Shown: positions 7,641 to 18,565 of the stretch, in pieces | Position numbering within the stretch: position 1 is the first letter of the stretch | Layout: every line of letters starts with the position of its first letter | Origin: Malacoraja senta | Lineage: Eukaryota | Assembly (NCBI GenBank): GCA_038087875.1 | Contig: CM075989.1 | Coordinates: 1,364,001 to 1,428,000, forward strand | Length of the DNA: 64,000 nt | Direction: 5' to 3' | Program-made: the position numbers and the translations under genes | Notes under the pieces: generated by a model | Databases searched by the model: none | What the model was told of the DNA's origin: nothing | Seen by the model: only the letters and a program-made list of their open reading frames with translations

Positions 7641-8645
7641 GCACTGTATTCTGAGACTGTGACTCCTGGTTCTACACATCCCAGTGAGGTGTGAAATTAT
7701 CTCCAAATCCATCCTGTCAAGTCCTCAGAATATTTTGTACATTTCGTTGAGAACATCTCTCATTCTTCCAAATGTCAGCGATTACAATCCCAATCCCAAT
7801 GTGCTCCATCTCTACAAAGGGTTCCAGCTTCAGACAGTGAGTGCTGTTGGGAACAATGTAGACCAGGTTTTCTGGGCATCCTGAAGGTGTTTATCTGAAC
7901 CGTCCCTCTGTTGACTATCTTTACTCACGTTGTGCTAACAGAAGGGGGAGGGGGGGGGCACAATGGCGCAACGGTTGAGTTGCTGCCTTATCGTCACTAC
8001 AGGTGCTTGTCTTTACAGAGTTTGTACCTTCTCTCCGTGACTTGCATTAGGATTTCTCCGAAAATTTCGCTTTCCTTCCACACTCCAAAGACGTACAGGT
8101 TTGTAGGTTTAAGAAGGAACTGCAGATGCTGGAAAATCGAAGGTAGACAGAAGTGCTGGAGAAACTCAGCGGGTGCAGCAGCATCTATGGAGCGAAGGAA
8201 ATAGGCAACGTTTCGGGTCTGAAGAAGGGTTTCTGTCCGAAACGTTGCCTATTTCCTTCGCTCCATAGATGCTGCTGCCAGGGCTGGTCTTAGGATGTGC
8301 GGGGCCCAATTGGGAAAAATTTTCATAGAAATATGAATTTATAATTATAAATGAGTCACGTGTCGTGAGTAATATGACAGTCAGTCGGCTTTAAAAAAAA
8401 ATCTTAAACCGCGCATGCGCAGATTGTTCTCTCCGTAAAAATAAAAATAAAAATAAATAAAGTAACAATTCAATTTTCCCACGGCTTCCAAATCTCCTTC
8501 TTTCTGAATTACTGAATGGGTGGGGGGTGGGGGGTGACGGCAGGTGGAAAGATGGTGGGAAAAACGGGAGCACACCGGGACAAGTTGAATCAGTTGTCAT
8601 CTTATTGAATGACAATACTAGTTCAATTTATCAAGGGACCAATTC

Positions 8646-9221
8646 GGGGGAGAGTTCCTTTCACAGCGTGTGGAGAGTCTAGCCAGGGGTAAAGTTGTGG
8701 GGAGGGCAGGAGCGTTGAGAAGCAGGGGGTCGGGTTCATGCCAGTAACTCACTCACACCGCTGCCGCGGCGCTCCGGACGCGGAGCTACCGCATTGTGGC
8801 CGGGGAGGGAAGCAGCTCGCGTGGCTACGAGCGGCCTCCATCACCGGACAGCGGAACCGACTGCCATCTCAGCACCTTCTGCCGGCCCGCTCACCTCTGG
8901 CAGTGCTCTCCTTCTGAACAGAGAGGGGACCAGCCCAAGAGCAAAGATCATAGAGCGGAGTGGGTCAGCGGGTGATGGATAACATCACAGCGGGTGGTGG
9001 AGCTTACTCTTGTGTCAGCGCGAACAAGGGATCAATTGAGGTTACTCGCACTGACATATGGAGTAAGCTCCACCGCCCGTTGTCCTGTTATCCATCGCCC
9101 GCTGACCCGCTCTTGAGGTGGATGATCCCCGGCCGACCCCCTCCTTCTCAATGCTCCTGCCCTCCCCGCAACTTTACCCCTGGACAGACTACCCACACGC
9201 TCTGAAAGGAACTCACCCCCC
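8646..9221. repeat. Interrupted fold-back palindrome
   Basis: 8646-8737 pairs with about 9128-9221; 8929-9025 pairs with about 9042-9123. Confidence 0.85.
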
Positions 9222-10411
9222 AGCAGCGCTGTCCTTTTACAGCCACTTCCTACTTTAGAGCCTCAAGGTAATATCTTGCCAAACTCAGTTGTATCTTTCT
9301 CTCAATAAATATCATAAAATATGCCATTGTTTCAGCCACATTATGACAAAATATAGAATGTAGATTATTTGTTATCAGTCACTCCATCTCAGAAACAACA
9401 GTACTTAAAGAACAACATTTGTTTTACTAATTTACGAGCATGTACCATACAGAGACCGTTGATCCATATCCAGCAAAATGTTGTGATAATTGCATAAAAG
9501 GTATTATTGTCTAAAAAATTTGGTGTGGAATGATAATCCATCAGTACTCATTTAGGCAAGTCCCAAGCTATAGATACTTTTCTCCCACCCCCAATCCCCC
9601 TCGCCCGATCTTCATTGAACCTACCATTTGACCAATCTTTTACTCAGCTGCTGTAACGTTTCCTTCCAATCAAAATCTCTGTGTAGCATCTTTGTCCCTA
9701 TCTTCCAATTCCCACTTTGAAATAAATACAACTTTCGACAAACATTTCGCAGCAGGATCGCTATATAAATGCAAATATATGGTATTTTATCCGAGCACCC
9801 CCCCCCCCCCCCACCCCCCTTACCACCACACAAGAAGCATAACTTGAAGTATTTGCATTTGGAGAAGTTTGATATTGACCAGGAATTAAAATTAATAGAA
9901 AGATTAAATGAGAACTTACCAGTTTGAAGTTTGATCTTTATTTTGTGAGAAGTTGCGATAAGGGATTACGTGAAGAAGCCCGCCAGCCCGCATGCGCGTC
10001 AACCTTTAAAGCAGCGGTGTGAAATCACAGAAACAATTGCTGACCTGATTATAGGAAGATTTGAGAAACTAGAACTACCACATGATCTTTATGAGAATAG
10101 GGTTGGGGGTGGAGGGCACGTAATCCCTCATCGCAACTTCTCACAAAATAAAGATCAAACTTCAAACTGGTATGTTCTTGTTTAATCTTTCTATTTTATT
10201 TCGAAGTCACGTGAGTGACTACGTGAAGACTTTAAAGCTCTGTGATTTCATGATGCGGACTCGAGTCCATGCAAACACACTGCATCAGTTGACCAGATAT
10301 GCTTGAAAAAATAGTGCATTCAGACATGACATAGATTTAAAACATGCTGATGCTTTTAATGAAAGTGAAAATAATAATAGTATTGGTCCCTTACATCTGG
10401 GAAAATAAATT

Positions 10412-11330
10412 TCATTTAACCGAACTCAAAATCGTGTTGGCAAACGAACCTGGCCTGGCAATCGGTTTATTGTAAAAGGTCTGGAAAGTCCGCTCATTCG
10501 ACCATCCTACTGTCGCTAGGATGCGGTCCAGCGGAACCTCCATGAACCTTGCTGCTGATGTTGTTGCAGCCCCGGTGGAGTGAGATTTAAAAACATCAGT
10601 GTCCACTCCTGCGCAAGCCAATACATGTCTTAACCACCTGGAGATGGTCTGCACTGATACCTTCTTATGTCGATTTTTATGACTAATAAACATAGCCGGC
10701 TCAGTGCCTCTTTATATCCTTTATATATTGGTGAATAAATGTGACAACACACAATCTACGGTCCATCGGATATGCCAAAAATTCCAGCTTTAGACCTAAC
10801 ACACCCAGTCTGCTTTGCTTGATTAACTCATTTATATAGAATGTTATCTTGTTGGCAGACATAACCGTCCTGTCCAGCCAGAGTTTATGCAACGACTGGA
10901 CGCATTGCGCTGAAACCAGCACCATGAGCATTATTACCTTATATGTCAGCCGGACCAAAGATAAGGATGTAGCTGGAGCCCAACCGCGAAGCAGTTAACG
11001 TCCCATACTTCTGTGTACCTGGGCCTGGGAGGATTTATGTTAAAGATACCCTTCATGAATTTGGATATCAAAGGGTGAGACCCAACAGAGTGGTGTCCCG
11101 ATCCCAGCAGCAAGTATGATGACAAGGCACTTTTGGCAGAATTGATGGCACTATAACTTAATCTTTTATCAAAACAACATTGAAAGAAACTCTAAGACAT
11201 CAGTTATCCGTGCCGTATTATACGTTATATTTGAATTTAAACAAAACACTTCCCATCTCTTGATGTAGGAAATCTACTGCTTCTTGGTGCTATCCCGCCA
11301 AGCTGCAGTGATCATGTCCACGGTTCGGTC
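10412..11330 (-). pseudogene. DIRS copy 1 tyrosine recombinase remnant
   Basis: ORF pieces ...TISRWLRHVLACAGVDTDVFKSHSTGAATTS...GWSNERTFQTFYNKPI. The HSTR catalytic box reads HSTG. Frameshifted. Confidence 0.9.
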
Positions 11331-16110: not shown

Positions 16111-16303
16111 TCCTCTACCCCCAGCCACGTTTATATCTACAGTTCACTCCACGAGTGTGTGTGTGTGTGTGTGAGAGCCTAGCAGTGTTTCTCAGCTCCG
16201 TGAGCTGCTCGTATTGACAGTAATCGTGTCCAACTCTTAACTGATTAAGTGTGGTTTCCAAACTGAAAATCCCCCTCTCTCTCTGTCTCTCCACTGCCCC
16301 CCC

Positions 16304-16596
16304 CACACACACACAGAGACAGAGACACACCTAGAGACACAGATAGAGACGCAGATAGAGACACACACACACACACAGCCACAGAGACACACACACACAC
16401 AGACACAGACACATACACAGACACATACACAGACACAGAGTCACACACACACACACACACACACAGACAGACACATACACAGACAGACACACACACACAG
16501 ACACACACACACACACACAGACAGACACACACACAGACACACACACAGACACAGACACAGACACAGACAGACAGACAGACAGACAGACAGACACAC
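16304..16596. repeat. (CA)n/(GACA)n compound microsatellite
   Basis: Direct inspection. Confidence 0.97.
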
Positions 16597-18565
16597 AGGG
16601 TTAAATCCCACCCATACCCCGGCCCGGACATTAACCCCGACACCAATGTTAACACAGACTCAAACCTCCAACCTGGTCTGCTGTTGTACCAGCACCGAAC
16701 AAGTTAACACAACCCCCAGATCTGTTTATCCACAGATTGTCTCCCTCTGGCACTTATCCGGCCTGTTGTCTTTCGTTTCTGCTTCACGTCTTTTAACTCT
16801 ATCCCCCCGACCAAGAGTGGGCCGGTACGCCACCGATTTCATACAAATCTGACCCTTTCACGCCCCCCCCACCCCACACACACCGCCCACTCCCGGCGTT
16901 TGGCGTTGAATACTCATGGCTGAGTTTGCTGCGGTGCTGGGGCTTGCTGCCCTGTTAGCGCCTGGACAGTCAGTCTGGCGGGGGCTGTGAGACTCCCACA
17001 CCTCCCCAGAGCCCGGTACTACCAGCCCCCCCCCCCCCCTTAGTCCAGACCAGAGTCTCGGCCACTCCGGTGGCAGCAAGTCCTCATTTACTGAGGAATA
17101 TGGATCAGAGCATTGATGACCCATTGTATAACCACTTAACTACTGGCTGTCAACAGGTGCTACAGTTGGAGTTAACACATCGTTTGTGTCTGGCGAATGT
17201 TTTTTTTAAAATCTTTATTTAATAAAGCGAATTTGTATTTCGATATGAAATACGGAAAATCGGTCCAATCGGCCTAAGGCAGGCCCTGGCTGCTGCACCC
17301 GCTGAGTTTCTCCAGCACTTTTGTCTACCCAGGTTTGTAGGTTAATTGGCTTGGTATAAATATTTAAAAATTGTCCCTAGTGTAGGATAGTATTAATGTG
17401 CGGGGATCGCTGGTCAGTGCGGACTCGGTGGGCCGAAGGTCCTGTTACTGCGCTGTATCTCTAAAGTAAACTGAACTAAACCAAACTAAAAGACACGTAG
17501 GTTGACGAGCAAGAGACTGTTTGATGAGAATGGACAAGCCTGCTGTGGCCGTCCTGATTCTAATGTGAGTGGGTCTTGGTTGCAGGAGACTTCCTGACCC
17601 TGGAACAGGTTGGGTCAGGTGATGGTTGGTTGGGATGAAGGTGTTTTGGGGCAGAGCAGATGTTTGCAGTGTCTGATAATGTTGGGGGAAGCAACTAGAC
17701 GTTCAGTTGTAATTGTTGCGAATAAGGACTCTGACCAATGGCAAATTGAGGGGATAGTAGGCTTTCATTGGGAATGCCCTTCTGCTCCTACACGCACTGT
17801 CCACCAGCGTTAATTGTGTGGAATCGGCCCATCTTTCACCTGTTGGGTTGGCTGTAGCCTGAGAACCTTGGCTGAGAAACAAGAATAGAACTGGCAGACA
17901 GACCCAAAATGCTGGAGTAACTCAACAGGACAGGACAGGACAGGACAGAACTGACAGACTCCTGACTTTAGTTAAGTGAGCCCGACAGGCAGACTGGGGA
18001 TCTGTGCCTGACCCTGACTCTACTAAACCAAAACTGAGCGCCAACTTGCCTGGAGACCCTTTCTCACTTGGTGGGACCTCCCCAGTGCCATTAACTGTGT
18101 GCTCCAGGGAATGTACAGCGGTGTGTGTGTGTGTGTGTGATGTTACACACCCTCCCTGGGCAGCAAGAATGCCATCCCTTTGCACAAACATCTATCAGTC
18201 ATGTTATCCTTAAGACAAATAGTGCACAGAACTCACTTTGTGTGAGGACTAAATGTAAATGATAGCAGTAAATGATAGCAAAAGGGCATAAAACGGAAAG
18301 AAAGATTATTTACTTAGAGCGGAGAAAGAATAAACTAGTTCTGTTGCTCGTATGAACAAATGTACCTCAGACTTTTGAAATTAAGGATATAATGGGAGCT
18401 TGTTCGTTGGTAGGGTGTTCATGAGTCAAGCGTTCTTAACCCCGTGATAGTCTCCACTCAAGTAAGCCAAGAGTCAAGGGTGTTTTATTGTCATATGTAC
18501 CGGCATGGACCAACAACTTTCTCACTTGCAGCAGCAGAACAGGTTTGTAAACACAGTACTCAATG

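Follow-up and report, generated by a model that had tools for sequence, protein, structure and literature searches.

A hAT-type insertion within a nest of repeats

We analysed a window of 64,000 nucleotides from the skate Malacoraja senta (GenBank assembly GCA_038087875.1, contig CM075989.1, positions 1,364,001 to 1,428,000 of the forward strand), in which a hAT-type transposon with a DIRS retrotransposon inside it interrupts a hairpin repeat, itself inserted in a short interspersed nuclear element (SINE). The hAT-type insertion spans window positions 8279-17288, a length of 9010 bp. It is flanked by identical 8-bp target site duplications (TSDs; GCTGCTGC) at 8271-8278 and 17289-17296, within a low-complexity GCT repeat, and ends in 16-bp terminal inverted repeats (TIRs), CAGGGCTGGTCTTAGG on the left and CAGGGCCTGCCTTAGG on the right, which are alike at 13 of 16 positions. 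An initial annotation, made from the letters alone, had described imperfect TIRs and an exact TSD around 9010 bp, and both the coordinates and the degree of match were confirmed. The 8-bp TSD and short TIRs starting with CAG are the features by which hAT elements are recognised. With up to three mismatches allowed, the TIR motif occurs at just two sites in the window, the two ends of the element, against 0.30 expected; two sites were reached in 3 of 100 shuffles. Ends of the form CAG..CTG, with a symmetry of at least 12/16 and an 8-bp flanking repeat, were sought across the whole window; the scan returned this insertion and one other pair, 23704-60133, which by its sequence reads as two inverted CR1 copies.

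No transposase domain was found by Pfam in any of the 70 open stretches of at least 33 amino acids outside the DIRS and the microsatellites, in agreement with the initial annotation. Pfam gave no match at the curated cut-off for 78 open stretches, and Rfam gave none over 7600-17700. A homologue search with the open stretch 16959-17219 found nothing; the sole match of the open stretch 16861-17139, a tandem-repeat prediction, was dismissed as spurious. The insertion is supported as a non-autonomous hAT-type element. It had been called giant, which overstates its size, as it measures ~4.4 kb once the DIRS is subtracted.

When the insertion was excised in silico, the arms of the host hairpin matched at 74 of 75 positions, the difference of about 1 in 75 noted previously. 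The host hairpin is flanked by an exact 14-bp TSD (CAGGTTTGTAGGTT; copies at 8097-8110 and 17330-17343), and the two SINE halves outside it are contiguous in other window copies. The TSDs and the restored symmetry therefore uphold the order first proposed, with the DIRS inside the hAT element (8-bp TSD), the hAT element inside the hairpin (14-bp TSD) and the hairpin inside the SINE. The SINE label and the Penelope-type label of this and of an inner hairpin (14935-15067) are presumptive and follow in part the initial annotation. The nearest window relatives of the host hairpin are 95% alike, but positions at which both of its arms depart from the aligned relatives are few, so the host hairpin looks young. 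A hairpin repeat of a different subfamily lies at 41330-41550 (74% to the host); its arms match at 63 of 64 positions, so near-perfect arms occur in several hairpin subfamilies.

It is highly improbable that the two ends come from different elements, or were joined by rearrangement with the 8-bp repeat a coincidence. Left and right ends are alike in the 16-bp TIR alone, the TIRs differ at 3 of 16 positions and the target is of low complexity, all of which would fit unrelated ends. However, removal of the span restores both the hairpin symmetry (74/75) and a collinear SINE, and hAT elements commonly have subterminal regions that differ between the two ends.

Structure of the element

The features of the locus are as follows, with the strand where one was assigned.

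7990-8110, plus strand: outer SINE, left part, ending in the 14-bp TSD copy 8097-8110; many window copies run straight into the 17330-17489 part
8111-8278: host hairpin, left part, ending in the 8-bp TSD copy 8271-8278 (arm and window-copy comparison)
8279-8294, plus strand: left TIR (TIR motif and symmetry comparison)
8295-9220: left body with fold-back, arms 8646-8733/9133-9220 (79/88) around an inner hairpin 8958-9112 (57/66)
9221-9893: multi-copy body with the left 90-bp arm, 9672-9761 (arm alignment, contig depth)
9894-14540, minus strand: DIRS1-like retrotransposon, 5′ inverted terminal repeat (ITR) missing (homologues, internal complementary region (ICR), terminus)
9894-9972 and 10117-10229: right extension and ICR of the DIRS, with the ATT junction; 3′ end intact
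~10415-11320: broken tyrosine recombinase (YR) of the DIRS
~11366-13154: broken reverse transcriptase and RNase H (RT/RH) of the DIRS
14541-14886: multi-copy body with the right 90-bp arm, 14794-14886 (arm alignment, contig depth)
14883-14933, minus strand: 51-bp terminus of a miniature inverted-repeat transposable element (MITE); full copy at 26843-27162
14935-15067: inner hairpin of the host's kind, left end missing (arms 36/40)
15068-15404: multi-copy body with the left 42-bp arm (15288-15329) and a small hairpin (15338-15410) (arm alignment, depth)
15405-15647, minus strand: 3′ piece of a CR1 long interspersed nuclear element (LINE), 83-91% to other window copies
15652-16598: microsatellites, TC (15652-16101) and CA/GACA (16305-16598), with 200 bp between them
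16599-17272: right body with the right 42-bp arm, 17085-17126 (arm alignment)
17273-17288, minus strand: right TIR (TIR motif and symmetry comparison)
17289-17329: second 8-bp TSD copy (17289-17296) and remaining host hairpin (arm comparison)
17330-17489, plus strand: second 14-bp TSD copy (17330-17343) and SINE, right part (window copies)

The fold-back, MITE end, CR1 piece and microsatellites of the initial annotation were all found. Four further features emerged, namely a 90-bp inverted pair, the loss of the 5′ ITR of the DIRS, the truncated inner hairpin and the pair 15288/17126. The 90-bp pair (9672-9761/14794-14886) brackets the DIRS and aligns with 85 matches, 5 mismatches and 3 gap columns; an exact 26-mer from its right arm had no match in metagenome contigs. 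The donor family of the MITE terminus is represented by the full copy at 26843-27162, which has 48-bp arms (44/48) and TTA on both sides and is presumably PIF/Harbinger-like. No TSD was found at the inner hairpin. A TSD scan around seven internal segments gave nothing longer than 5 bp, and the fold-back and the 90-bp pair have no TSD of 4 bp or more.

The third inverted pair, of 42 bp, joins 15288-15329 to 17085-17126. At 15280-17135, TTAA stands 8-9 bp outside each of its arms. This interval is possibly an older nested TIR element around the CR1 piece and the microsatellites; chance could also account for it.

The DIRS retrotransposon

The retrotransposon at 9894-14540 has the features that define DIRS1-like elements: RT/RH, a tyrosine recombinase, an ICR complementary to the termini and an ATT junction, readable within the ICR at ~10190-10200. 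Its terminus and ICR are alike at 75 of 79 positions. The RT/RH reaches 58-61% to RT-bearing proteins over 460-590 codons and the YR 56-66% to YR homologues. For the RNase H region the best homologues belong to two skates, Amblyraja radiata (70%) and Leucoraja erinacea (66%), which points to a skate or close relative as the probable host. In Pfam, the YR piece alone matched Phage_integrase, at E = 0.0076, below the curated cut-off.

A search with its own ICR and right ITR found no left ITR in 14300-15400, where the best scores were 15 and 13; the end of a second DIRS in the window gave 64 and 60. As the 5′ ITR is gone, the right junction (14535-14540) is a deletion junction and a unique marker of this copy. 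The frames carry 8-10 breaks in ~880 codons, about one per 100 codons. Between 5 and 7 of these fall in pol, depending on the reference (five are common to three full-length references), and 3-4 in the YR. The presence of a DIRS and the 4 of 79 mismatches between terminus and ICR, both reported at the outset, were borne out; the description of this copy as heavily decayed was not. Judging from its sequence, this copy would be unable to move by itself, having lost its 5′ ITR and with its frames broken.

The second DIRS (28517-33390) is complete-ended and ~80% alike to the first. It has 24-26 breaks in ~480 pol codons, mostly single-base losses, and 4-5 in the YR, with 4 of 79 mismatches between terminus and ICR; either uneven decay or assembly errors would account for this. 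A third DIRS (33952-36293, plus strand) lies head to head with the second and has a large internal deletion that joins the RT to the 3′ end at ~35800-35920.

Abundance of the element body in public contigs

Contigs of four public runs from four organisms, taken from 23 runs listed, were aligned on 7600-15640 at 88% likeness. The best word share of a run was 0.37, and none reached half. Summed contig depth is not a copy number, as the tool itself cautions, and a contig of run X15 on the left flank (425 bp without differences, depth 22) served as the single-copy yardstick. Across bins 9214-9751 the four runs gave depths of 21,900-22,000, 27,200-29,600, 20,900-24,200 and 6,200-6,700; flank contig depths, in the same order, were 22, 83, 46-75 and 9. 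The non-DIRS body up to 15640 thus lies at hundreds of times the flank depth. In X15 the depth was 31,000 at 14594-14862 and 180,000-220,000 at 8407-9213, with the same shape in the other three runs, and single contigs averaged ~900-2,500 (38,294 over 15 contigs at 9389; 17,628 over 8 at 14628).

Every non-DIRS bin in 8407-15640 was multi-copy in all four runs. The body up to 15640 is plainly repeat-family DNA rather than unique host DNA. The suggestion of unique GC-rich DNA was not borne out for 8407-9213, which is among the deepest-covered parts, nor was the suggestion that the element moves host DNA over the 7.4 kb examined, in which every non-DIRS bin is multi-copy. Depths in X15 were similar (12,000-38,000) at 9389, 9692, 14628, 14791, 15090 and 15219. 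At 14974, within the inner hairpin, the four runs gave 45,000, 42,000, 33,000 and 8,900, tracking the neighbouring body. Depth of one order on either side of both the DIRS and the inner hairpin fits a single patchwork family. Moreover, the inner arm boundaries at 9672, 9761, 14794 and 15288 are bridged by contigs. In X15 the depth over 8407-9213 exceeds that of the neighbouring body ~8-10-fold, and in the other runs it does so several-fold. At the left-end bin, depth and the loose ends listed were dominated by hairpin, SINE and CR1 repeats.

The DIRS behaves differently from the body. With the lowest of three body bins as the reference, depth in its shallowest bin (13787-14055) fell to 0.18, 0.11, 0.08 and 0.13 in the four runs. 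Free DIRS copies add depth, and cargo copies should be as window-like as the body, so 8-18% would be an upper bound for body copies with the DIRS. Most body copies are thus likely to be without it, and transport of the DIRS as a trait of the family, as first proposed, is not upheld. Joints skipping the DIRS were absent among the 15 of 3,448 rows listed, and local depth dips occur inside it; both are evidence neither way.

Relative age of the insertion and its contents

The initial annotation had contrasted a young host hairpin with an old DIRS. The host arms differ at 1 of 75 positions, or 0.67% per arm (95% interval 0.02-3.6), and the DIRS terminus and ICR at 4 of 79, or 2.5% (0.7-6.2), two of the four mismatches falling at one CpG. 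This contrast is weak and was not confirmed (Fisher p = 0.37). The terminus-versus-ICR clock was dropped, since the second DIRS is far more broken and yet also differs at 4 of 79. A stop-codon clock, with 2-4 stops, gave 2-4% with intervals of 0.2-10%, and the DIRS clocks pooled against the host gave p = 0.06-0.13. Breaks may already have been present in a defective donor, and the arms of a hairpin may homogenise.

Pooled without the DIRS, the other internal arms carry 35 mismatches in 353 positions against 1 in 75 in the host (p = 0.011). Taken with the multi-copy body, this argues that the older repeat pieces predate the jump, and the fold-backs, MITE end and truncated hairpin probably travel with the hAT family. 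The earlier claim that the cargo predates the jump is therefore upheld, indirectly, for these pieces; for the DIRS the clocks lean the same way but overlap. Among the 40 of 937 rows listed, the body has 8 near-fixed differences over ~1,350 bp and the DIRS 23 over ~4,640 bp, which weakly suggests a similar density in the two. Whether the DIRS rode along on the last jump of this copy is an even call.

The same data bear on a short hAT MITE stuffed in place by independent high-copy elements (the fold-back, a 90-bp-arm element, the DIRS, the CR1 piece and the TTAA-flanked element at ~15280-17135). The step in depth near 9213, the presence of several distinct inverted pairs, a window saturated with repeats and TTAA at near-symmetric offsets around the third pair are all as it would predict. 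It nevertheless seems unlikely: at least five insertions and at least two truncations would be needed within the time of one host-hairpin mismatch, the internal arms appear older than the host, neither the fold-back nor the 90-bp pair shows a TSD, and TTAA is one of many 4-mers permitted by 12 bp of slack.

The case put by the initial annotation was a DIRS-bearing hAT sub-lineage mobilised repeatedly, with the broken DIRS present in several copies under different TSDs. Depth leaves room for it in up to 8-18% of copies, and a DIRS with 8-10 breaks and a terminal deletion, set in a host with one mismatch and two exact TSDs, is in keeping with it, as are the stop clock and its pooled p values. 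hAT elements are described as moving inserts this large (PMC3260210, PMC12511174). However, the comparison of 1/75 with 4/79 is not significant and half of those four mismatches share a CpG, and the second DIRS, with 24-26 pol breaks at the same 4/79, indicates that neither clock is reliable. Moreover, the stop base at 11274 is absent from 26 of 26 contigs at that place in X15 and 28 of 28 in X5, although the listed rows were selected for such differences. Repeated mobilisation of the DIRS is thus a rather improbable account.

Origin of the composite element and comparison with known systems

The explanation we favour, as somewhat better than an even prospect, is that the element is one copy of a multi-copy non-autonomous skate hAT family whose body of ~4 kb is a patchwork of fold-backs and old repeat fragments, and that the DIRS joined later, as a passenger carried by this copy or by a small sub-lineage. 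Carriage of the DIRS is likely to be confined to a minority of copies, and the whole is probably a composite mobile element of an ordinary kind. As read from the nest, a hairpin repeat inserted into the SINE, and the hAT-type element was then pasted into one hairpin arm, as its TSD and the restored symmetry show. The DIRS would have entered the body at ATT between the two 90-bp arms; its 3′ junction is seen, and a recombinase mechanism is suggested by what is known of the DIRS family. A deletion would then have stripped its 5′ ITR, the loss of which is seen. The patchwork body itself may have been built by insertions, deletions or template switches, and the family was presumably mobilised in trans by cut-and-paste.

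Several observations weigh against a single patchwork family with a late DIRS. Among the 32 of 662,429 pieces listed, none bridges 8279, 9220, 9894, 14540, 14886, 14935, 15067 or 15405, so the linkage of body segments to one another and to the TIRs is read from their matching depth. The contigs showed no second full copy, the 15 of 3,448 joint rows listed being hairpin artefacts only. The step in depth of at least 8-10-fold near 9213 implies that two or more repeat classes are present in the left body; 8407-9213, a nested double fold-back lacking a TSD, may represent an abundant family of its own or else be the core of shorter derivatives of the hAT element. Contig depth covers 7600-15640, so the right end (15640-17288) falls outside it. 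Finally, the stop clock, at 2-4%, leans older than the host at 0.67%, which fits a DIRS acquired before the jump.

The element presumably resembles vertebrate MITEs of the Tip100 group, such as MER45, more closely than Tip100 itself. Tip100, a subgroup of hAT, shares with it an 8-bp TSD and a TIR starting with CAGGG (CAGGGGCGGAG in Tip100; PMC12511174); the likeness here is one of TSD and TIR, with no transposase by which to place the element. Maize Ds and Ds-like elements are likewise non-autonomous hAT elements with short TIRs, an 8-bp TSD, filler DNA and nested retrotransposons and DNA transposons, reaching 24 kb in Ds1 and 12.7 kb in Ds2, and a 100-kb macrotransposon, mostly nested retrotransposons, is cited as mobile (PMC3260210). 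The skate element differs in its vertebrate host, DIRS passenger and TIR, and is known from sequence alone. Human RICKSHA, which is catalogued as a composite TIR family and contains an ERVL piece (PMC1431705, PMC3531169), is also a vertebrate non-autonomous TIR element with an acquired retroelement piece. However, it is listed as MuDR (PMC5753468), has 79-bp TIRs and has documented amplification with its ERVL cargo, whereas the DIRS stands at no more than 8-18% of body depth.

The element is of non-autonomous hAT type and, like Pack-TIRs, holds extraneous internal DNA between TIRs. Pack-TIRs are defined by an insert of 100-5,000 bp from a unique, non-transposon parental locus, and multicopy ones are rare but known, including a hAT example, the frog Pack-hAT-N8_XT (PMC8277862). 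A unique parent is contradicted here over 8407-15640, where the non-DIRS bins were multi-copy in all four runs. The passenger shares RT/RH, YR, ICR, right extension and ATT terminus with DIRS1-like elements (PMC3266345) and differs from them in its missing 5′ ITR and broken frames.

It is doubtful that a skate hAT sub-family was amplified across several species as a 9-kb unit, with a fixed, broken 4.6-kb DIRS and the MITE, hairpin and LINE fragments. Were this so, a vertebrate DNA transposon would have served as a vehicle by which a recombinase retrotransposon spread to new places. Should the mosaic body move as one unit, it would give vertebrates a clear example of repeat fragments carried along in a hAT element, and repeat libraries that split the body would miscount and misdate skate insertions of MITEs, hairpins and DIRS elements. 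As the principle is already documented in Ds, RICKSHA and Pack-hAT, the element would add a case and no new mechanism. A literature search found no description of this hAT family; Repbase, Dfam and supplements lay outside that search, and it is possibly catalogued there.

Minor features

Within the body, a 39-bp stretch at 15230-15275 has CAG on one side and a perfect GTGAGT donor-like site on the other. It could be an exon relic, with an unconvincing branch spacing. The CR1 label of the piece at 15405-15647, which follows the initial annotation, is presumptive. Elsewhere in the window, long open reverse-transcriptase frames of CR1 type were found at 58988-60418 (476 amino acids) and 38331-39365 (344 amino acids).

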